IMG/VR virus record: IMGVR_UViG_2541047905_000018
Direction: 5' to 3' (one strand)
DNA from: a virus
Taxonomy: Duplodnaviria; Heunggongvirae; Uroviricota; Caudoviricetes
Length of the DNA: 36,344 bases
How positions within the stretch are numbered: the first letter of the stretch is position 1; every line of letters starts with the position of its first letter. Positions 1,466 to 34,938 of this stretch are shown here, in pieces. A program made the translations under genes and the position numbers. The notes below the pieces were generated by a model. It made no database searches. It was not told the origin of the DNA and was given only the letters and a program-made list of their open reading frames with translations.

Positions 1466-3525
1466 TCCACAACCTCCCCAAGCTGCGCATCTGTTAGCTC
1501 TTTATGCCAGAGACGAAAATTCCTCACATGCCCAAATAAATGGCGTAATCCTGCTGTAGTTTGTCCACCAATGCGAATGGTTGCTGTACTCCGGATATAT
1601 TCCCATGTGGTTTTTGTTTCGCTGGATATACGCCCGTTACTTACTGCACATGTAGACTGATCTGACTTTACACGCATCCCCATAACCATTTTTTTCAACG
1701 ATGCGTTTTCGTTAACACGCCTATTTGATCCACCAATATCGCAATAAGGAAATCCGTCTGGCCCATCTGCCGAAGATCCGAAGCCAAGAATAATAGCCGC
1801 TCCGGTTTGATGACCGCCGGTATCAAAAACACGTGGCGCTGCATTTGGCGTTTTATACCAGTTCTTATGTACCTCACAAAGAACCGTAAAAGGAAGATTA
1901 TAAAGATTATTCTTAATCGGAACTGTAACCATATCGCTTGCGCGCGTCGCCGCCGTCGTTCCTGATATAATAAAAGATGATACACACGAACCATCCTCAA
2001 CCTGAGGGGTGGCCAGATAAATATAGTCACCAGATTCAACGACACCACCTTTTTTTGGTGCGTATTGTATTGCAGAGGTTATGTAAGTTTCTTTACTTGC
2101 TTGAATCGTTGCCTCTACAAAAATCCAGCCCGTAGCTTCATCTTTGTTAACTCGTGCGGTGAGCCTGTCGGCAGCTACACCGGTGATTTCAACCAATAAA
2201 GACCGCGTATTAACAATGGCATATCCAAGATTAGATGAAGCGCTGCCATCGAAGGCTTCAAACCTGATCCTTAACAGGAGTTCCAAATCCGTTTTAAATC
2301 TGCACGATGTCGTCACACACTTATTATCGCCTGATACATCGACAGCCCCCGAGGTTGAAACTACTGCCATATTAAGGGTTGTACTTTGCCCAATTAATGA
2401 TTCATTACAAACAAACTTTCCATAAGTAAAACCAAAACTATCAGTTCCAACCTCAGCGACATTCATATTTGCAGATTTACCCCAAGAAGCTGGAGTTGCT
2501 GAATTCAACATGTAGTTGGTTCGCTGACCTTCAATCAATAAACCTTCTTTTTCAAATCGTGGCTCATTAATTTCCGCCGTTTTCAGTTCGCCAGATTTGT
2601 TGATATATGTTGCCGTTGATGCGCGACTGAAATTAACCTGTTTATCACTGGCAACCTGAACCACATTATCACCAATCTTCACTTTTTTATAACCCGGAGA
2701 ATAGCCCGTAATCATATCCAGCGAATCATTAAAGGGTATCCACACATCCGGCAGCGGCTGTAAAACATATCTGTACGGCTCTGCTGTCTGGTTTGCGTAT
2801 TCTCTGGCAGCATCTTCACTTGCTTTTGCTGCCGTCTGGCTTGCTGCCGATGCTTTCGCCGAGTTCGCCGCCGCTGTTTCGCTCACCTTTGCGTTGGCTT
2901 CACTGTCTTTGGCATTCGTCTCACTGGTTTTCGCTGCCGTCTGGCTGGATTTTGCGTTTTTTTCGCTGGCCTTTGTGGCTGTCTCGCTATTTTTCGCGCT
3001 GGTTTCTGATTTTTTGGCTGCTGTCGCGGAGTTTGCCGATGCAGTCTGCGAGGCCGCTGCCGCCTGTGCGCTGTTAGCTGCATTCGTTTCTGAGGTTTTC
3101 GCCGCATTCTTCGATGAGGCTGCTGCCGTTTCGGATTTCTTTGCCGCCGCTGCACTCTGTGATGACGCTCCGGCATGACGTGCCACTTCATTCACCATCA
3201 GCTCAAAACGGCGCAGTGCCTCCGGACGAACATCATCCTCCGTCATGGCGCCGAGAAAATCATTCAGCGTACCTGGTCTGGAACCTTCATAGACGGTAAT
3301 GGTCCCGGCATGTGAAGGCGGAAAACCTTCAACCAGCAGGGTGACGCTGTACTGGCCATACTCAACATCCATGCTGTAACGCCCGGCTTCATCCGGATTT
3401 TCAGAGGCCACCGTGTTCACCACCACCGTGCTGCTGGTCCGTCTGGCCTTCAGCACAATGGTGCAGTTCTGTACTGGTTTTCCTGTGCCATCTTTCAGCA
3501 CACCTGAGATTTTTACTGCTGCCAT
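1462..3525 (-). CDS. side tail fibre protein
   Basis: The N-terminus MAAVKISGVLKDGTGKPVQNCTIVLKARRTS... is the prophage tail-fibre N-terminal domain. A long Ala/Ser/Thr/Lys-rich repeat region follows (SETAA.. / AKTSETNA..), then a C-terminal jelly-roll-like region. I chose the ATG at 3525, which has GGAG 5 nt upstream, rather than the GTG at 3531. Confidence 0.85.
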   Translation of the reverse strand: MAAVKISGVLKDGTGKPVQNCTIVLKARRTSSTVVVNTVASENPDEAGRYSMDVEYGQYSVTLLVEGFPPSHAGTITVYEGSRPGTLNDFLGAMTEDDVRPEALRRFELMVNEVARHAGASSQSAAAAKKSETAAASSKNAAKTSETNAANSAQAAAASQTASANSATAAKKSETSAKNSETATKASEKNAKSSQTAAKTSETNAKDSEANAKVSETAAANSAKASAASQTAAKASEDAAREYANQTAEPYRYVLQPLPDVWIPFNDSLDMITGYSPGYKKVKIGDNVVQVASDKQVNFSRASTATYINKSGELKTAEINEPRFEKEGLLIEGQRTNYMLNSATPASWGKSANMNVAEVGTDSFGFTYGKFVCNESLIGQSTTLNMAVVSTSGAVDVSGDNKCVTTSCRFKTDLELLLRIRFEAFDGSASSNLGYAIVNTRSLLVEITGVAADRLTARVNKDEATGWIFVEATIQASKETYITSAIQYAPKKGGVVESGDYIYLATPQVEDGSCVSSFIISGTTAATRASDMVTVPIKNNLYNLPFTVLCEVHKNWYKTPNAAPRVFDTGGHQTGAAIILGFGSSADGPDGFPYCDIGGSNRRVNENASLKKMVMGMRVKSDQSTCAVSNGRISSETKTTWEYIRSTATIRIGGQTTAGLRHLFGHVRNFRLWHKELTDAQLGEVVE

Positions 3526-3536
3526 ATCCACTCCAT

Positions 3537-3563
3537 AAAAAAGCCCGCCTGAACCGGCGGGCT
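3537..3563 (-). terminator. rho-independent terminator after lom
   Basis: The minus strand reads GCCCGCC-ggttca-GGCGGGC followed by T6. Confidence 0.6.
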
Positions 3564-3589: not shown

Positions 3590-4189
3590 TCAGAACTTAT
3601 AACCGACACCCACGATGAAACTGTTGGTACGCCAGTCACCGCTGCCGGAGCCTTCATAAGCGACATCAATGGCCACGGATTCGGTCGGGTTAAACTGCAC
3701 GCCAGCTCCCCACGCCAGAGACGTGTTGCTGTGGCGACCGTCATCACTTCCGGTCAGCACATCGTGCTTTTTCCCCTTGTTGTCAGTTACGCGGAGATAA
3801 TCCCCGGAGAAAGTCGACACACGGCTGTAAGCCACACCCACCATCGCATACGCGCTGAACCATTCATTCACGCGTACAGACGGCCCCGCCATCACGCTGA
3901 ACCAGCGGTTACGCACGGAATCTTCATGCCAGCGGGTATCGCTGTAGTGCGTTTTTTGCTCATCCTCAGCATTGGCATAACTGAAGGACGTAATCAGCCC
4001 CAGCGCGTCCGTAAACTCATAACGGTATTTCACGTTAATCCCGTTCAGATTATCGCTGCCGGGAGCGTTCGTACGGGCATGAAGATACCCCGCGCTCAGT
4101 GTGGACTGATGTTCAGACGCCCATGCAGGCGCACCGGATACGGACAGACAGATGGCTGCGGACAAAATGGCTGCACATAATTTACGCAT
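3590..4189 (-). CDS. lom: Lom/Ail/OmpX-family outer membrane protein
   Basis: 199 aa with a signal peptide (MRKLCAAILSAAICLSVSGAPAWA) and beta-barrel strands ending ...GVGYKF. Same position as lambda lom, after J. Confidence 0.9.
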   Translation of the reverse strand: MRKLCAAILSAAICLSVSGAPAWASEHQSTLSAGYLHARTNAPGSDNLNGINVKYRYEFTDALGLITSFSYANAEDEQKTHYSDTRWHEDSVRNRWFSVMAGPSVRVNEWFSAYAMVGVAYSRVSTFSGDYLRVTDNKGKKHDVLTGSDDGRHSNTSLAWGAGVQFNPTESVAIDVAYEGSGSGDWRTNSFIVGVGYKF

Positions 4190-24720: not shown

Positions 24721-24936
24721 TTACTCTCCCCGTGCAGCCTTACGCTTGTCTTCTCTGATTTTGAAGTACAGATTTGTCAGATAAGTCAGGAAGCCCAGAA
24801 CCAGACTCCCCAGTACACCAATCGCAGCCCACTGTGACGGACTGACCTGATCAAGCCACTGTAAAAACCAGTAGCCAGCACTGCCTGCGGAGGTGCCGTA
24901 GGCAATGCCCGTTGAAATTTTGTCCATGGATTTCAT
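24721..24936 (-). CDS. S: phage-21-type pinholin with a dual-start motif (MKSM)
   Basis: 71 aa. [71 protein letters not shown] is essentially S21. A strong SD (GGAGGTGAGG) is present. Met1 and Met4 give the antiholin and holin forms. Confidence 0.9.
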
Positions 24937-25073: not shown

Positions 25074-25101
25074 GCCCGTATCCATATGCGGGCTTTTTTT
25101 T
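25074..25101 (+). terminator. plus-strand hairpin with T8, facing the lysis genes from the antisense side
   Basis: GCCCG-tatccatatg-CGGGC followed by T8 on the plus strand. No plus-strand gene lies upstream, so its role is unclear. Confidence 0.4.
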
Positions 25102-25107
25102 GCATGT

Positions 25108-25137
25108 AAAAAGGCCCCAACACATGTGCGTGGGGCC
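25108..25137 (-). terminator. rho-independent terminator closing the 230-nt ORF-less unit downstream of the tRNAs
   Basis: The minus strand reads GGCCCCA-cgcacatgtgt-TGGGGCC followed by T5. Confidence 0.6.
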
Positions 25138-25167
25138 TGAGAGTATACATGGTTTCAGTCAACTGCA

Positions 25168-25189
25168 TGGTGCCGGGTGCCTCCCGGTG
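25168..25189 (-). repeat. 22-nt element CACCGGGAGGCACCCGGCACCA (copy 1, sense in the late transcript)
   Basis: Exact 22/22 match to 34354-34375 on the plus strand. It contains a CCGGG-aggca-CCCGG hairpin and tandem GGCACC. Confidence 0.8.
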
Positions 25190-25337
25190 AATTCAGTACC
25201 AGCACCTGAATCCGCGATTATCCCATATACCTACTCGCTGATTGCCCATCCGCACAGGGGGATTCACCATGCCAGTTTCTTTTAACAAACTCCCCGCAAA
25301 ACAGACAACTGTCAACCGTCTGAATTGTGAGACATTT

Positions 25338-25363
25338 AAAAAAAAGGCCCGCAAAAGCGAGCC
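25338..25363 (-). terminator. rho-independent terminator immediately after the tRNA cluster
   Basis: The minus strand reads GGCTCGC-tttt-GCGGGCC (one G-U pair) followed by T8. Confidence 0.6.
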
Positions 25364-25377
25364 GGGAAAAATAAGTC

Positions 25378-25454
25378 TGGCGCGTTGTACTGGATTCGAA
25401 CCAGTGACCGATTGCTTAGAAGGCAATTGCTCTGTCCGGTTGAGCTAACAACGC
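25378..25454 (-). tRNA. tRNA-Arg (anticodon UCU)
   Basis: I folded the cloverleaf by hand: acceptor GCGTTGT/ACAACGC, D arm GCTC..GAGC, anticodon arm ATTGC-CTTCTAA-GCAAT, T arm ACTGG-TTCGAAT-CCAGT, CCA encoded. Confidence 0.9.
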
Positions 25455-25467
25455 AGGGTACAGATAA

Positions 25468-25544
25468 TGGACCGCCATCGAGGACTCGAACCCCGCGCAA
25501 CCAGCTTCGAAGGCTGGTGCTCTATCCTGATGAGCTAATGGCGG
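25468..25544 (-). tRNA. tRNA-Arg (anticodon UCG)
   Basis: Cloverleaf: acceptor CCGCCAT/ATGGCGG, anticodon arm CCAGC-CTTCGAA-GCTGG, T arm CGGGG-TTCGAGT-CCTCG, CCA encoded. Confidence 0.85.
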
Positions 25545-25551
25545 TATGTGA

Positions 25552-25627
25552 TGGTGGCCCTTGCTGGATTTGAACCAGCGACCTGGCGATTATGAGTCGC
25601 TCGCTCTCACCACTGAGCTAAAGGGCC
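25552..25627 (-). tRNA. tRNA with CAU anticodon (Met, or Ile2 if lysidine-modified; the ileZ-like position of Stx phages)
   Basis: Cloverleaf: acceptor GGCCCTT/AAGGGCC, anticodon arm GCGA-CTCATAA-TCGC, T arm GCTGG-TTCAAAT-CCAGC, CCA encoded. Confidence 0.85.
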
Positions 25628-26097: not shown

Positions 26098-26478
26098 TTA
26101 CTTTTTTAGCAGCCAGTCGTCCATCTCCAGTCTTACCCCCAGCACAGACAAACATCCGTCAATAAACCCTTCGGCTATCTGCATCTCAATTCGTATTGCT
26201 TTTTCGCTTTTCTTTCTCGTCCTGGCTATCTGTCTTTTTGATATTCGCAACAAATAATGAGCAATGAGAAGCGAATACTCCTCAGGTTTTTTCTGCTTCA
26301 GACGAGCAAGACAGTTTTCAATGATAAGTCCGTCATCATCGCAGCAGGCCGGACGTGGTTTAGTGGCAGATGGTAAAAGTCCTTTGAATCCGGCAGCGAT
26401 CGGAGAATAGTCCACCCCGGTGTTACCACTTGCAGCCCATGCCCCCCAGCGTTCAAGAACCATCTGAATATCACGCAT
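26098..26478 (-). CDS. Q: late-gene antiterminator Q
   Basis: MRDIQMVLERWGAWAA... is the typical phage antitermination Q family opening. I chose the ATG at 26478, which has GGAG upstream. Position is immediately before the terminator, tRNAs and lysis genes. Confidence 0.85.
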   Translation of the reverse strand: MRDIQMVLERWGAWAASGNTGVDYSPIAAGFKGLLPSATKPRPACCDDDGLIIENCLARLKQKKPEEYSLLIAHYLLRISKRQIARTRKKSEKAIRIEMQIAEGFIDGCLSVLGVRLEMDDWLLKK

Positions 26479-26495
26479 CAACTTTCTCCACAAAA

Positions 26496-31053: not shown

Positions 31054-31330
31054 AGTGACAGCCCCGGTAGTCAGTTTTTTAGAAAACTCACCACATGGGA
31101 CGCCAATCACAGAGGTGGTGAGACGTACAGGGTTGGCGTTACCGGAGACTACCGAACCCGGCCCGACCGAAGTCGGCCCTGTACGCCCCACCATAATTTG
31201 GGCGTAGCAATGCTCATGACACGAAAAAACCGCATGAGCGCGGTTATGCTCAGTAATCAATTTCAGGACGCCAATCCCGGCAACGGATTTTGCCGCTGCC
31301 AGAACAATATAACGCCCAGAATTATCAGAA
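31054..31330 (-). promoter_or_regulatory. highly structured leader with intrinsic terminators upstream of rha and the replication gene (tR1-like region)
   Basis: On the minus strand: AACCGC-gctcat-GCGGTT followed by T6 (31224-31245); TACGCCC...GGGCGTA; a 9-bp stem CGTACAGGG/CCCTGTACG enclosing CCGAC-UUCG-GUCGG; and CTCACCAC...GTGGTGAG followed by TTTTCT (31081-31122). Confidence 0.55.
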
Positions 31331-32617: not shown

Positions 32618-33244
32618 ATGGAAACGGTTGGTCAGCGTATAAAAGCTCTGAGAAGAGTTACCAGAACGTCCCAGAAAGAATTGGGTAAATTTTGTGGAGT
32701 AAGTGACGTTGCTGTGGGGTACTGGGAGAAAGACATCAATGTCCCTGGTGGGGAAGCACTTTCAAAATTAGCGAAGTTCTTCAATACGTCAATAGATTAC
32801 ATTCTTTATGGTGCGGAGTTTGAAGGCAAACTCGTCACAAACATGCGCAGAGTTCCTGTAATCTCGTGGGTTCAGGCTGGGCAGTTTACTGAGTGCAGGA
32901 CAGCAGAAGTGTTTAGTGAAGTAGACAAGTGGGTAGATACATCATTAAAGATTGGTGATAACTCATTTGCATTGGAGGTTAAAGGCGACTCCATGACTAA
33001 CCCTAACGGCCTCCCAACAATACCAGAAGGCGCAACAGTGATTGTAGATCCTGATGCAGAACCCCGGCATGGAAAAATAGTCATCGCTAGACTTGATGGA
33101 ACAAACGAAGCCACAGTAAAAAAATTAGTTATCGATGGCCCTCAAAAGTTTTTAGTGCCATTAAATCCCCGGTACCCCAACATCCCGATCAATGGTAATT
33201 GCCTCATCATTGGTGTAGTCAAAGGAGTTCAATACGAACTCTAG
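32618..33244 (+). CDS. cI: CI-type repressor (XRE HTH plus S24 LexA-like peptidase domain)
   Basis: 208 aa. N-terminal HTH (QKELGKFCGVSDVAVGYWEKD) and C-terminal S24 domain (VKGDSMTNP...ATVKKL Ser/Lys dyad). Confidence 0.9.
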   Translation: METVGQRIKALRRVTRTSQKELGKFCGVSDVAVGYWEKDINVPGGEALSKLAKFFNTSIDYILYGAEFEGKLVTNMRRVPVISWVQAGQFTECRTAEVFSEVDKWVDTSLKIGDNSFALEVKGDSMTNPNGLPTIPEGATVIVDPDAEPRHGKIVIARLDGTNEATVKKLVIDGPQKFLVPLNPRYPNIPINGNCLIIGVVKGVQYEL

Positions 33245-33266: not shown

Positions 33267-33299
33267 CACCGAACTAAGAAAAGTTTGGTGTTTTCTCTT
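33267..33299 (+). terminator. rho-independent terminator after cI
   Basis: CACCGAAC-taagaaaa-GTTTGGTG (one G-U pair) followed by TTTTCTCTT. Confidence 0.5.
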
Positions 33300-33326
33300 G
33301 CCATCAAAACTAAGTTAAGTTAGATT
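33298..33326 (+). promoter_or_regulatory. candidate pL (TTGCCA-17 nt-TAGATT) with an OL-like operator in the spacer
   Basis: The operator-like ACTAAGTTAAGTTAGA at 33309-33324 lies between the -35 and -10 elements. It shares its half-site with the OR sites. Confidence 0.55.
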
Positions 33327-33409: not shown

Positions 33410-33432
33410 AAAAAAGCGCCCTACAGGACGCT
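33410..33432 (-). terminator. minus-strand terminator beyond the 5' end of the 97-aa gene (would end the A2 transcript)
   Basis: The minus strand reads AGCGTCC-tgtag-GGCGCT (one bulged base) followed by T6. Confidence 0.5.
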
Positions 33433-33477
33433 TAGCTCTTTAACAATCTTGGTATCCCCGTAACAAAAGAGGGTTCT

Positions 33478-33771
33478 ATGGTCATATTCTGTGCTTACGT
33501 TCATCCTAATGGATTTTTTATCAGCACCAACCAACAAGACGAATTCTGGATTCTACTTAGTAAGCAGGTCGGATGGGGACGATTCTGTCTAATCCGACCA
33601 GAATCAGAATTTACAGAGAATGGAGGGCTTTTTGAATTACGTGAAATACGTCCGGCAGATGGTCAAGCCCCTGACCAAGTAATCGAATCGTCAGCTGTTT
33701 TATGGCGTCGGCAGGAAGCGTTCGAAGCTGAGAGAGTAATTTCTTCTTATCTTCAGTCGTGGCAGAAGTAG
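33478..33771 (+). CDS. unknown 97-aa protein (copy B2 of the duplicated module), first ORF after pL
   Basis: GAGGG SD 5 nt upstream. Paralogue of 22581-22937. Differences between the copies in the non-overlapped part fall mainly at third codon positions. Confidence 0.65.
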   Translation: MVIFCAYVHPNGFFISTNQQDEFWILLSKQVGWGRFCLIRPESEFTENGGLFELREIRPADGQAPDQVIESSAVLWRRQEAFEAERVISSYLQSWQK

Positions 33772-34114
33772 AACTATTGATGATACGTTCAAGTTCACAG
33801 AGAGTCTCATCATGCAATCTTATTGTCATAATCCCAAGAATAGCTTTAAGACCTCCATCATCACGAATGAAATCAATTCCATCTTTAGTAATTCTTAATT
33901 CAGGAATATTTATATTTATGCCATCCAAGTAATAATCAAGAGCATTCTTAATCAAGCCATGTTCTTCGAGATAAATTAAGTTCGAAATTAGGACATTATC
34001 ATCTCCAAATGCGTCACGAACAGACTGCAACGCATCATCAGAAATTTCATAAGGATGAGCATCATACAGTATTTGTAACAACTGCCTTTGTGCACTTCTA
34101 TCAAATTTGTCCAT
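33611..34114 (-). CDS. unknown 167-aa protein, winged-helix-like N-terminal half (copy A2 of the duplicated module)
   Basis: Paralogue of 22283-22798. It is convergent with B2 and overlaps it by 161 nt. A candidate promoter TTGATA-16 nt-GATTAT ends 5 nt before the ATG, so the mRNA may be leaderless. Confidence 0.7.
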   Translation of the reverse strand: MDKFDRSAQRQLLQILYDAHPYEISDDALQSVRDAFGDDNVLISNLIYLEEHGLIKNALDYYLDGININIPELRITKDGIDFIRDDGGLKAILGIMTIRLHDETLCELERIINSSTSATTEDKKKLLSQLRTLPADAIKQLTIRLLGQGLDHLPDVFHVIQKALHSL

Positions 34115-34353
34115 CTTAAATAATCACCATGTTATTGGGGGTATCAAGATTAACCGAATCCTTGTTGTTGGGGAATAACCAGGTCCACCTCGCCTGATGT
34201 GGCTAAAAGCAGGCACATAACAGCTAAGTATTTTCAACCAGAGAGAATCCTTAGCGTTGTGGTGAATGCGGCTCAGCGCACGCGGGTTAAGGTTGAGGCT
34301 GACAGTCGACCTTCTGTGGATACCCACCCGCCTGGTGTGCAACCTTCGCCAGG

Positions 34354-34375
34354 CACCGGGAGGCACCCGGCACCA
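34354..34375 (+). repeat. 22-nt element CACCGGGAGGCACCCGGCACCA (copy 2, sense in the pL transcript)
   Basis: Exact reverse-complement match to 25168-25189. It lies about 15 nt upstream of the DicF-like sequence. Confidence 0.8.
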
Positions 34376-34438
34376 CAACAGCCACTGCTTTGGCGGTACC
34401 AGTTTGTACACTTGCTTCCGGCTGGTACCGCTCTTTTT
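34375..34438 (+). ncRNA. dicF: DicF-like small RNA with its own terminator
   Basis: TTTGGCGGTACCAGTTTGTAC matches the K-12 DicF core TTTGGCGGTATCAGTTTTAC at 18 of 20 positions. It ends in GCGGTACCAG...CTGGTACCGC followed by TCTTTTT. The synteny (repressor, pL, small ORFs, dicF) matches the Qin dicB operon. The 5' end is not determinable from sequence. Confidence 0.65.
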
Positions 34439-34527
34439 ACAAAACAGAGAAGAGCATCACCGGACGACGGGCTCATAACCCAATCCATCCGGGCGGCTGC
34501 CACCGCAGGTGTTCTTCTCTGTTTTGT
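34439..34527 (+). repeat. long inverted repeat (15-bp perfect stem ACAAAACAGAGAAGA / TCTTCTCTGTTTTGT) directly after the DicF-like terminator
   Basis: Read directly from the sequence. The arms enclose about 59 nt containing further GC hairpins. It is a candidate RNase III processing stem, which is inference. Confidence 0.6.
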
Positions 34528-34575
34528 GGAGAAACCAACCGACCTTGCAGGGTCGATATGATGAGGAGCAGCAAA

Positions 34576-34938
34576 ATGGCTAGCGAACGCAGTACTGATG
34601 TGCAGGCATTTATCGGGGAGCTGGACGGCGGCGTATTTGAAACCAAAATCGGCGCAGTTCTCAGTGAAGTCGCTTCCGGTGTGATGAACACGAAAACCAA
34701 AGGTAAGGTCTCGCTCAACCTGGAAATCGAACCGTTTGATGAGAACCGTGTGAAAATCAAACACAAACTCTCATATGTTCGCCCGACTAACCGCGGGAAA
34801 ATTTCTGAAGAAGACACCACCGAAACGCCGATGTATGTCAATCGCGGTGGTCGCCTGACTATTCTGCAGGAAGACCAGGGACAATTACTGACTCTTGCCG
34901 GTGAGCCTGACGGAAAACTCCGCGCAGCAGGTCATTAA
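34576..34938 (+). CDS. yfdP: YfdP-like protein
   Basis: 120 aa from the ATG at 34576 (GAGGAG SD 6 nt upstream). I recognise the sequence and size as CPS-53 YfdP-like, and it is followed by yfdQ and yfdR homologues. Confidence 0.7.
   Translation: MASERSTDVQAFIGELDGGVFETKIGAVLSEVASGVMNTKTKGKVSLNLEIEPFDENRVKIKHKLSYVRPTNRGKISEEDTTETPMYVNRGGRLTILQEDQGQLLTLAGEPDGKLRAAGH

Follow-up and report, generated by a model that had tools for sequence, protein, structure and literature searches.

Two copies of an STnc100-type pseudoknotted RNA domain in one prophage, sharing a 22-nt repeat

Two loci in the 36,344-nucleotide stretch of phage DNA analysed here (the window) share a 22-mer, CACCGGGAGGCACCCGGCACCA, which is the most conserved stretch of an RNA domain of about 120 nt comprising five helices and a pseudoknot. 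Locus 1, upstream of the lysis genes, is by its sequence already known, belonging to the published Hfq-binding prophage sRNA family RF02076 (EcOnc27/sRNA103, PasD-related). Locus 2 is a second complete copy of the domain, previously unannotated, at the head of the early-left operon. The present analysis establishes family membership, the fold, the existence of two classes of copy and the genomic contexts of those classes. The explanation we favour, and hold to be probable, is that both loci carry the STnc100/EcOnc27/PasD scaffold, locus 1 as an sRNA-type gene and locus 2 as a class B copy transcribed from pL, the scaffold serving as a stable 5' body.

The 22-mer within a covarying domain

At up to three mismatches the 22-mer has only two matches in the window:

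25168-25189, minus strand: copy 1, running from the final base of P4 through one unpaired A and hairpin P5 into the P1 3' strand, of which it takes in the first 5 nt
34354-34375, plus strand: copy 2, at the same structural position as copy 1

None of 100 dinucleotide-preserving shuffles contained it (chance expectation 0), placing the perfect match beyond chance, as a preliminary description of this DNA had argued. That description also saw both copies as sense to a lytic transcript, the segment CCGGG-aggca-CCCGG as a hairpin and the whole as an RNA-level element on the transcribed strand, and on each count the present data agree: the strands are those of the neighbouring operon genes (Q, the tRNAs and the holin at locus 1, the cI-like repressor and yfdP/yfdQ at locus 2), the hairpin is helix P5, which is supported by covariation, and Rfam, our covariance model and the covariation analysis all point to an RNA structure on that strand. 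Two other claims need revision. The element had been taken as discrete, with unrelated flanks, but the complete domain of about 120 nt is present at both loci, with a common helix plan and with GGUGAAU about 80-95 nt upstream. Nor are tandem GGCACC repeats a motif, as the second CACC is the 3' strand of P1, which covaries freely among other copies (e.g. GGAACG/CGUUCC, GCUAUG/CAUAGC).

In the modelled fold, closing helix P1 leads through a 3-nt AAU joiner into hairpin P2 (5 bp with one bulge and a U-N-N-G-C loop), the strand just 3' of P2 is predicted to pair with the P4 loop to form a pseudoknot with a variable insert inside, and an invariant hairpin, P5 (CCNGG-AGGCA-CCNGG), appears to stack directly on P1. 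Both loci fit this P1-AAU-P2(U-N-N-G-C)-pseudoknot-P4-P5(AGGCA) architecture. A covariance model of the flanking structure, proposed as a check in the preliminary description, was purpose-built on both classes (R1); it matches locus 1 with 85.2 bits and locus 2 with 80.7 bits, and has no other significant match in the window.

Covariation strongly supports the fold. In a set of 35 diverse copies, pairing holds in 92.8% of cells, compared with 79.7% in shuffles, both sides of a pair are changed in 118 cells (34 in shuffles), and the covariation score is 0.384 against 0.143, a value reached by 0 of 500 shuffles and well separated from slid controls (0.06-0.11). For the 145 model hits the corresponding figures are 94.3% of cells paired, double changes in 20 of 24 pairs, and a score of 0.452 against 0.155. 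The pseudoknot reaches at least 6 bp in 42 of 54 representatives, as against 16-23% in controls. At the middle pair of P5, 213 copies have G-C, 47 have U-A and 2 have A-U, and three compensatory pairs set the P2 stem of class A (CCCCC/GG-N-GGG) apart from that of class B (GCGGC/GC-A-CGC). In the RF02076 structure the pseudoknot is missing and class B copies have P2 wrongly paired. Conservation is highest in the junctions and loops (AAU, U-N-N-G-C, GCG, AGGCA), which are constant from Escherichia to Pantoea, Erwinia and Rahnella.

These data bear directly on the view that the 22-mer has no function of its own and is a short patch of mosaic homology, marking where phage modules recombined. The preliminary description had allowed that it might be the edge of a longer homology block, and a longer block is indeed common to both loci, but as a covarying structure and not as a passive joint. 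In many phages the homology to locus 2 begins inside the 22-mer (query 124/132, equivalent to window 34363/34371), and the MS8345 and mEp460 prophages keep the P1 strands and flanks around a different interior. Against this, every helix, and the pseudoknot too, shows compensatory changes across more than 140 copies from many genera, the orientation is always sense to the operon, and RNAs have been detected experimentally. What looks like a joint is the point at which an exchangeable interior meets a shared P1 strand, and so reflects RNA modularity. A mosaic joint, effectively refuted by the covariation analysis, is extremely improbable.

An STnc100 gene upstream of the lysis genes

Locus 1 comprises the following features:

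25102-25301, minus strand: complete sRNA gene of the STnc100 family, with scaffold, linker and terminator, matched by Rfam RF02076
25158-25276, minus strand: scaffold domain, matched by R1
25272-25265 / 25172-25165, minus strand: P1, covariation-supported helix
25264-25262, minus strand: joiner J, AAU
25261-25257 / 25251-25245, minus strand: P2, covariation-supported helix
25242-25236 with 25204-25198, minus strand: pseudoknot, from the complementarity test
25213-25206 / 25196-25189, minus strand: P4, covariation-supported helix
25187-25183 / 25177-25173, minus strand: P5, covariation-supported helix
25104-25139, minus strand: intrinsic terminator, GGCCCCA.../...UGGGGCC followed by U5, at the 3' end of the Rfam match
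25346-25363, minus strand: terminator after the tRNA-Ile(CAT)/Arg/Arg cluster, the upstream border of the unit
25074-25100, plus strand: convergent terminator abutting the STnc100 terminator, from the terminator search

This is an ordinary STnc100 member, with scaffold, single-stranded linker of about 30 nt and Rho-independent terminator, and it matches RF02076 over model positions 1-206 of 206 with 133.1 bits (E=2.6e-29; gathering score 47 bits). Its neighbours, all on the minus strand, are Q (26098-26493), the tRNAs (25378-25627) and the holin (24721-24936), and such a location, between Q/pR'/moron genes and the lysis cassette of a lambdoid prophage, is typical of STnc100/EcOnc27; locus 2, in the pL operon, does not share it. 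VT2-Sakai has Q, three tRNAs, stx2AB, STnc100, nanS-p and S, in this order. The unit had been said to occupy the position of stx, but it is STnc100 itself, the element normally found after stx2B; the catalogued family was not identified in that description. The bracketing of the unit by minus-strand terminators (25363-25346 and about 25139-25104) and the lack of a credible ORF were correctly recognised, the overlapping ORFs being without Pfam support. A protein-coding reading was rejected for either locus, as the overlapping ORFs of 46-120 aa have no Pfam match and an ATG inside P1 is not a conserved feature of other copies. We found no good sigma-70 promoter directly upstream of locus 1; E. 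coli-type copies have a conserved block about 40-70 nt upstream. Anti-sRNAs of the AsxR/AgvB type lie at the convergent-terminator position in O157 prophages, and this convergent-pair architecture has been described (PMC4104026); the opposite strand of locus 1 has no Rfam AsxR/AgvB match.

For relatives, expression as a discrete Hfq-bound RNA of about 160-250 nt and effects in trans are documented. EDL933 has 11 expressed STnc100 copies, one of them confirmed by Northern blot (PMC5331693). EcOnc27, of 235/247 nt, is destabilised without Hfq (PMC4104026 supplement), and because its Hfq-CRAC peak falls on the 3' 80 nt (Tree 2014, PMC4104026 supplement) the Hfq-bound region in family members would be the linker and terminator. 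EcOnc27 is identical to sRNA103, overexpression of which raises fimZ and espA transcripts (PMC12711010), and a machine-learning study placed variants in the STnc100 copy directly after stx2B among the strongest genomic predictors of HUS (PMC12711010). PasD1 and PasD2 are Hfq-dependent, with RIL-seq targets (Pearl Mizrahi 2021, PMC8550237), and PasD and STnc100 are described as structural homologues in a recent preprint (Zhu, Shabalina & Storz 2026, bioRxiv 10.64898/2026.05.13.724894). The same preprint never mentions DicF or dicB, so that copies beside them, such as locus 2, are not covered.

By analogy with these relatives, to which the two copies in the window would conform, the locus 1 RNA would be about 180-245 nt long, bound by Hfq and active in trans through its linker/terminator part. 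In the lysogen its terminator may in addition help to keep moron transcription from upstream away from the holin. Most likely the scaffold forms a compact 5' body that resists nucleases and offers a conserved host factor a surface to bind; it is unlikely to bear a target-pairing seed. The conservation of junctions and loops fits neither target pairing nor a generic stabilising hairpin, which counts against our favoured explanation as it stands.

A class B copy in the early-left operon and the contexts of the domain

The features of locus 2 are:

34253-34385, plus strand: scaffold domain, class B, matched by R1
34256-34264 / 34371-34379, plus strand: P1, in the minimum-free-energy fold
34268-34272 / 34278-34283, plus strand: P2, in the minimum-free-energy fold
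34289-34295 with 34340-34346, plus strand: pseudoknot
34330-34337 / 34347-34354, plus strand: P4, in the minimum-free-energy fold
34356-34360 / 34366-34370, plus strand: P5, in the minimum-free-energy fold
34392-34439, plus strand: partly DicF-related terminator hairpin, a 12-bp stem then CUUUUUA, from fold and alignment
33298-33326, plus strand: likely pL, a promoter-like site overlapping the operator repeat AAACTAAGTT..., which is also present in the cro/cI intergenic region

RF02076 scores 36.0 bits here (E=3.8e-6 in a 701-nt search), below its cut-off and with P2 flagged as mis-paired; since the both-class model reaches 80.7 bits, locus 2 is a relative outside the curated RF02076 boundary. 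A terminator follows each copy, as had been noted earlier, the stem at locus 2 (34392-34432) beginning 17 nt past the 22-mer. With no promoter of its own the copy would be transcribed from pL, and termination at the partly DicF-like hairpin would give a scaffold-plus-hairpin RNA of about 190 nt and attenuate yfdP-yfdQ-yfdR expression. Such an RNA would arise only upon pL derepression.

The wider collection of copies falls into distinct classes. In class A a TAnnnT hexamer lies 12-17 nt before GGUGAAU in 79 of 123 copies (23 in a shifted control), 34 of the 79 having a TTGACA-like -35 as well (control 4), a spacing that would set the transcription start on the first P1 base. Class B has such a hexamer in 0 of 35 copies; it is distinct, promoterless and embedded in pL/dicB-type operons (K-12 Qin, e14, SfV, P1). 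About 65% of copies have a terminator within 100 nt downstream, some lie 34-44 nt ahead of start codons (e.g. dicB), and others form head-to-tail tandem arrays of up to 6 copies with AU-rich spacers of about 10-20 nt and without internal terminators. Copies directly follow tRNA genes in lambdoid prophages and in phage P1, and others occupy the 5' leader of chromosomal kdgM porin genes, in a kdgM-pectate lyase operon that is conserved in Klebsiella, Kosakonia and Enterobacter. Copies that were unannotated include those in the K-12 Qin dicF-dicB spacer, under the doubtful 'ymfH' ORF of e14, in SfV, in P1 and in the kdgM leaders, and a search of the literature on dicF-dicB spacer structure, 'ymfH' RNAs and a kdgM leader element found nothing relevant. 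In K-12 the spacer copy falls within 1649440-1649590 and the e14 copy within 1201250-1201390. IpeX of DLP12 is not an equivalent, the Q-nmpC-essD region having no Rfam STnc100 match at E<=0.01, and ManS/STnc500 was compared and is unrelated.

Arrays without internal terminators, copies near start codons such as that of dicB and the kdgM 5' leaders fit a stand-alone sRNA gene poorly. It is possible, though we rate it well below our favoured explanation, that the domain (classes A, B and a variant, C) is a tRNA-shaped pseudoknotted module in its own right, binding one conserved host machine and used in cis. RNA polymerase, an RNase that processes transcripts or some other RNA-binding protein could be that machine. 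Enterobacterial phages, together with a few host operons (kdgM), would insert the domain in untranslated stretches for processing, stability or read-through, as a single copy, as an array of up to six, or linked to interchangeable 3' effector hairpins of the DicF-like kind.

A rival reading, which we think unlikely, makes the domain a tRNA-shaped processing or 'punctuation' module. Host enzymes (RNase P, E or III) would recognise it and cleave polycistronic phage transcripts into pieces that are each stable, freeing a 3' sRNA (the DicF-like hairpin) or a downstream mRNA (dicB). The geometry invites a cloverleaf, with P1 stacked on P5 in the place of the acceptor and T arms, P2 in that of the D arm, and contact between the P2 and P5 loops: P1 (6-9 bp) abuts the 5-bp P5 with 0 nt between, P2 begins 3 nt after P1, and class C has a perfect 6-bp kissing pair, GCUGAU/AUCAGC, between the P2- and P5-equivalent loops, both of which are nearly invariant in 52 unique sequences and so leave little covariation to score. 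Placement after tRNA genes and arrays resembling tRNA arrays accord with this, as does the K-12 Qin copy, in which P1 is lengthened to about 25 bp (z=-5.4) and coincides with the reported RNase III cut that gives the 3' end of 72-nt DicF (PMC5069750). However, the extended P1 is peculiar to the Qin type and measures only 8-9 bp in the window copies, ARAGORN finds only the three true tRNAs, the element has no Rfam tRNA/tmRNA match at E<=10, the loops are unlike D- or T-loops, and NCCA follows P1 in some subgroups only. The main EcOnc27 species is moreover full length (235/247 nt), with the scaffold still joined to the 3' part. The tRNA resemblance is topological only.

Junctions and loops that do not vary, stems that covary freely and a pseudoknot also make an aptamer-like pattern, and a riboswitch-like or protein-binding leader, whose junction and loop bases would hold a small molecule or protein and so steer use of a terminator or ribosome-binding site, would suit an element always upstream of and sense to a gene, followed by a terminator or by a start codon at 34-44 nt, and present in the 5' UTR of the kdgM-pectate lyase operon. 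We find this improbable. The downstream genes (dicB, holins, nanS-p esterase, kdgM, yfdP) are mixed and share no metabolic theme; at locus 1, inspected by eye, the 3' strand of P1 shows no competing complementarity to the 5' arm of the terminator; no riboswitch is known to come in arrays of 4-6 copies; and class A copies, with predicted promoters that would start exactly at P1 and with their own terminators, accumulate as stable RNAs.

Relation to known systems

In EHEC and EPEC, STnc100-type RNAs rank with the most abundant transcripts that prophages produce. What is new here is a family-wide, covarying pseudoknotted scaffold whose invariant bases do not appear to be a pairing seed, and the presence of the same scaffold, unannotated, at the Qin, 'ymfH', SfV, P1 and kdgM sites given above, which brings its role within reach of experiment in laboratory K-12, beyond pathogens. 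The Rfam STnc100 model under-detects a whole class of copies.

Of the roles proposed in the preliminary description, a shared sRNA 5' module comes nearest, whereas a boxB- or put-like signal finds no support. The pentaloop of boxB is of the GNRNA type. P5 shares with the lambda/P22 nut boxB a 5-bp stem and a pentaloop in phage early and late transcripts, but its loop is AGGCA and it forms part of a larger fold, as one of its helices. No boxA was recognised, nor, in ORF lists and Pfam scans, an arginine-rich N-like ORF near pL, and a boxB-like identity is not supported.

The HK022 put sites offer a parallel to locus 2, as structured RNA in a lambdoid early-left transcript upstream of terminators, in a prophage where an N-like gene was not recognised in the ORF lists and Pfam scans. 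Put promotes terminator read-through in cis, an effect that depends on the zinc-binding domain of the RNA polymerase beta' subunit. By this parallel the nascent domain would bind RNA polymerase and cause processive read-through of the following and further terminators, replacing the N/nut system in the early-left operon and aiding late transcription. Locus 2, like the SfV copy, lies between the likely pL and a strong terminator ahead of yfdP-yfdQ-yfdR; without exception the elements have the sense of their operon, and they occupy untranslated stretches, mostly ahead of terminators; arrays could increase the fraction of modified polymerase; and long kdgM leaders would face Rho. We nevertheless give such antitermination little credence. 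The terminated transcripts build up as abundant sRNAs, so termination right after the element must be efficient, class A copies, with promoters and terminators of their own, resemble self-contained genes, the late operon has its Q protein, and the K-12 Qin element comes after, not before, the DicF terminator. Put is a two-stem RNA of about 70 nt (PMC9378689), whereas the present domain is a 120-nt pseudoknotted five-helix structure that also forms stand-alone promoter-to-terminator genes. HK022 gave no match in a 3-mismatch motif search, an Rfam scan of the immunity region or an R1 search of the whole genome, and homology to put was rejected for lack of sequence or structural similarity.

DicF (RF00039) belongs to an early-left operon analogous to that of locus 2, and the locus 2 hairpin shares with it UUUGGCGGUAyCAGUUU (the terminator 5' arm) and the 3' arm with U-tract, CCGCyCUUUUUA. 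The description of this hairpin as a DicF-like sRNA holds for that partial likeness and no further: Rfam DicF has no match in 34000-34700 even at E<=10, while the same tool scores K-12 dicF at 76.7 bits (gathering score 48), and the 5' single-stranded part and loop of DicF are not conserved at locus 2. Identity with DicF was rejected on the missing Rfam match, the partial alignment and target-pairing regions that are not both conserved. The order also differs, scaffold then hairpin at locus 2 and DicF then scaffold in Qin, where the class B scaffold directly follows the 3' end of dicF and runs up to the ribosome-binding site of dicB.

The closest relatives of both loci remain the published sRNAs. 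Locus 2 departs from STnc100/EcOnc27 in its RF02076 score of 36 bits, its P2 sequence, its lack of a promoter, its early-left operon and its partly DicF-like terminator. PasD1 and PasD2 of EPEC, likened here by their published description, are Hfq-dependent structural homologues of STnc100 near Q and holin/lysozyme genes, and locus 1 agrees with STnc100/EcOnc27 in its whole-model match, its Q-three tRNAs-[stx]-STnc100-lysis context, its terminator type and its convergent opposite-strand terminator.

The repeated element and its surroundings

The 22-base string CACCGGGAGGCACCCGGCACCA occurs at 25168-25189 (-) and 34354-34375 (+), and a motif search of the window gave no other match even at up to three mismatches, and none in shuffles. 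The window is a lambdoid prophage, and its re-annotation bore out the coordinates, strands and terminators of the preliminary description. The features concerned are:

26098-26493 (-), Q antiterminator (PF06530)
26029-26009 (-), tR'-like terminator
(-), DNA-methylase fragment, between the tR'-like terminator and the tRNAs
25378-25627 (-), tRNA-Ile(CAT)/Arg/Arg
25363-25346 (-), terminator between the tRNA cluster and the ORF-less unit
(-), ORF-less unit, between terminator 25363-25346 and the holin
24721-24936 (-), P21-type holin
(-), DUF1327 then lysozyme, after the holin
32618-33244 (+), LexA-family cI-like repressor
33298-33326 (+), likely pL overlapping an operator repeat
34147-34120 (-), promoter-like site of an antisense moron
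33611-34114 (-), 167-aa ORF of the moron
33433-33414 (-), terminator of the moron
(+), second 22-mer copy then a strong terminator, ahead of yfdP
(+), yfdP and yfdQ (DUF2303), after the strong terminator

The antisense moron (33414-34147) lies between the likely pL and the second copy; its ORF has no Pfam match, and in SfV this position is taken by another small ORF, with two terminators annotated. The tRNA at 25552-25627 (-) is called tRNA-Met (CAT) by ARAGORN, yet the identical gene is tRNA-Ile in RefSeq; it is of the ileZ type seen in the tRNA triplets of Stx phages, and presumably lysidine-modified. An Rfam scan identified C4 antisense RNA (82 bits) followed directly by isrK (69 bits) at 31111-31299 (-), a P1/P7-type c4/ant-style immunity RNA module within a lambdoid prophage, and the pair is also present in another locus compared, L220. 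A 25-nt inverted repeat, 34439-34463/34503-34527 (+), 84% complementary with a 39-nt loop, separates the DicF-like terminator from the start of yfdP, and is a second large RNA structure of the yfdP leader.

A pseudoknotted RNA domain at both loci

The first locus, 25102-25301 (-), is STnc100 (RF02076), matched in a curated Rfam scan over the full model length at 133 bits (gathering score 47 bits), and the 22-mer coincides with the part of the family consensus that is conserved best. Locus 1 is already known, as a published family. STnc100 is EcOnc27, an RNA of ~235/247 nt defined by Hfq-CRAC, directly 3' of stx2B in Sakai Sp5, destabilised without Hfq and with its Hfq peak in the 3' 80 nt (PMC4104026 supplement). 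It is also named sRNA103 (PMC12711010), 11 expressed copies are reported in EDL933 with Northern blot proof for one (PMC5331693), and a structural tie to PasD was reported in a 2026 preprint (bioRxiv 10.64898/2026.05.13.724894). The order in VT2-Sakai is Q, three tRNAs, stx2A, stx2B, STnc100, nanS-p esterase and S, and the window prophage is without stx and nanS-p. Because STnc100 comes after stx2B in VT2-Sakai, the earlier reading of locus 1 as occupant of the stx position is wrong, and the unit is instead the usual downstream neighbour of stx. A strong convergent terminator at 25074-25100 (+), GCCCGTATCCATATGCGGGC followed by T8, abuts the STnc100 terminator, an arrangement similar to what Tree et al. 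describe as a 'convergent sRNA pair', in which this position in O157 prophages is taken by the AsxR/AgvB anti-sRNAs (PMC4104026). No Rfam model match to AsxR or AgvB was found at 25074-25100 (+), and the terminator may be the sign of a short sRNA, convergent and so far without annotation.

At the second locus, 34238-34440 (+) aligned end to end with STnc100 at only 36 bits (Rfam at E-value threshold), below the gathering score of 47, and DicF gave no Rfam match in this region even at E<=10. K-12 Qin has an equally sub-threshold STnc100 match (34 bits) between dicF and dicB, the hairpin of which, CCUGG-AGGCA-CCAGG, shows a compensatory G-C to U-A change. The second 22-mer therefore belongs to a second full copy of the domain, and is not the isolated motif it had been taken for.

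A search for CACCNGGAGGCACCNGGCAC covered viral contigs as well as public genomes. Among the matches listed it is present in Escherichia, Shigella, Salmonella, Citrobacter, Klebsiella, Enterobacter, Kosakonia, Pantoea, Erwinia, Rahnella and others. In 272 of these matches, helix P5 has G-C as its N-N pair in 213, U-A in 47 and A-U in 2, and 227 have GGUGAA no more than 160 nt upstream, mostly at 73-111 nt. The fold, derived from 177 unique cores, comprises a P1 helix of any sequence (6-12 bp), an AAU joiner, and P2 of 5 bp with a one-base bulge and U-N-N-G-C loop, directly 3' of which 6-8 nt form a pseudoknot with the P4 loop; there follow a variable insert, GC, P4, a single A, P5 (CCNGG-AGGCA-CCNGG) and the P1 3' strand. 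The pseudoknot is AUCAGCG/UGCUGGU at locus 1, AAGGUUG/CAACCUU at locus 2 and CAGUUAA/UUAACUG in Qin. The 22-mer thus runs from the last base of P4 through the A and P5 to CACCA of P1. Of the tandem motif noted earlier, the second CACC is nothing but P1, which in arrays can be GGAACG/CGUUCC or GCUAUG/CAUAGC.

Across 35 diverse copies 92.8% of helix cells are paired, with a covariation score of 0.384; shuffles give 0.143 and slid controls 0.06-0.11. The 145 model hits, in an alignment fitted to the model and so favoured by it, give 94.3%, a score of 0.452 and double changes in 20/24 pairs. A pseudoknot of at least 6 bp is present in 42/54 representatives (16-23% in controls). This covariation excludes a passive mosaic joint as the origin of the repeat. 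A covariance model built from the scaffold copies found here, R1, scores 85 bits at locus 1 and 81 at locus 2. It also matches SfV (82 bits), phage P1 (74), Qin (73.5) and e14 of K-12 (66.6), and has no match in HK022.

Classes, settings and exchange of interiors

Two classes are told apart by P2, CCCCC/GG-N-GGG in class A (locus 1) and GCGGC/GC-A-CGC in class B (locus 2). Class A is called STnc100 at the gathering score, often as 2-4 tandem copies after the tRNA triplet; class B falls below that score and hence goes uncalled. A TAnnnT hexamer precedes GGUGAAU by 12-17 nt in 79/123 class A copies, 34 also having a TTGACA-like -35 (23 and 4 in a shifted control), which predicts transcription start at the first base of P1, and an own-promoter hexamer is found in 0/35 of class B. 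Typical class A copies are self-contained promoter-to-terminator units and typical class B copies lie within early-left operons; a terminator follows within 100 nt in ~65% of all copies examined. Among E. coli-type class A copies an upstream block is conserved (25285-25345 (-), CTCACAATTCAG-n3-GTTGACAGTTG ... TTTGTTAAAA), the TTGACA of which is surrounded by a covarying hairpin. From the published 235/247 nt of EcOnc27 (PMC4104026 supplement) it follows that the RNA includes this block.

Class B lies 3' of the DicF terminator and 34 nt ahead of the dicB start in Qin-type prophages, ahead of yfdP in SfV-type phages and ahead of tciA in phage P1. Genes downstream of all copies are dicB (32), nanS-p esterase (20), holins (~23), KdgM porins (11) and YfdP-like (10). 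The KdgM cases are chromosomal, in the kdgM-periplasmic pectate lyase operon of Klebsiella, Kosakonia and Enterobacter, where the scaffold occupies the 5' leader, preceded by a promoter/operator-like block that is conserved (L070 1841-1976 (+) and 10 related loci). Pantoea/Erwinia prophages carry head-to-tail arrays of up to 6 copies upstream of a holin. Arrays of 4-6 copies on one strand are L082 6394-7837 (-), itself upstream of a holin gene, L101, L054 (on a Pantoea plasmid), L092, L038 and L050, some copies being only ~10-20 nt apart; one array copy has a deviant P5, CCG-UCUAACGAG-CGG. A riboswitch, which the conservation pattern would suit, is quite improbable given such heterogeneous downstream genes and the arrays.

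The e14 scaffold (L247 4756-4887 (-), 66.6 bits with R1) overlaps the annotated 'ymfH' CDS (b1142), which is therefore probably a spurious ORF over structured RNA. PGAP 'hypothetical protein' calls cover both window loci in other genomes. In the Qin class B element (L001 1939-2098) P1 is extended to ~25 bp (fold z=-5.4), its 5' strand spanning the reported RNase III position and its 3' strand stopping 6 nt short of the Shine-Dalgarno sequence of dicB. The 3' end of the 72-nt DicF is reportedly an RNase III product (PMC5069750). This RNase III site, the topology, the tRNA neighbourhood and the arrays would all suit a tRNA-shaped processing module, a reading we regard as unlikely, the full-length EcOnc27 species speaking against it.

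Locus 1 of the window is found unchanged in E. coli MS8345. Ahead of its yfdP, MS8345 keeps the locus-2 P1 strands and flanks around a different interior, in which the 22-mer is absent and the two equivalent loops are perfectly complementary (GCUGAU/AUCAGC). This class C, which has no Rfam family, is present in MS8345, mEp460, Stx2 phages, Klebsiella phages and phage P1, with examples at:

L003 3776-3919 (-)
L246 2380-2523
L248 (phage P1) 3005-3148

Since class C combines locus-2 P1 strands with another interior, the apparent homology breakpoints within the 22-mer show where an exchangeable interior meets a P1 strand that is shared. The phage P1 unit lies ~80 nt after tRNA-Asn/tRNA-Thr. The region from these tRNAs to tciA (L248 2772-3828) also contains a stretch resembling a pseudo-tRNA, its T-arm being GGTTCGAATCC, a weak third R1 match (3434-3544) and class B (3695-3828, 74 bits), and CACAACAGGTAAGGG is repeated on either side of the class C unit.

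Predicted action and relation to known RNAs

By homology, locus 1 most likely makes a scaffold-linker-terminator RNA, the 3' part of which would bind Hfq and act in trans, and its terminator and the post-tRNA terminator would, in the lysogen, bar moron transcription from reaching the holin. Locus 2 is most likely transcribed from pL only, its transcript stopping at the partly DicF-like hairpin to give a scaffold-hairpin RNA, and this termination would simultaneously attenuate the early-left operon. Put-like antitermination by the scaffold would also suit where locus 2 lies, no N-like gene having been recognised in this phage, but it is very doubtful, being without homology support and a poor match to efficient termination directly after the element. 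The scaffold bases that never vary lie in junctions and loops and are the same across genera, a pattern that points to a constant partner, whether protein, RNA polymerase, an RNase or a ligand, and away from a seed for pairing.

The 22-mer finding is thus largely explained, and exposes a highly conserved RNA fold testable in K-12. Compared with the literature consulted, the recurrence as sign of another paralogue that scores below threshold, class B with its lack of a promoter and its place inside operons of Qin, e14, SfV and phage P1, the pseudoknot, the arrays and the kdgM leader scaffold all appear new. They are extensions of a known family, and no new kind of system.
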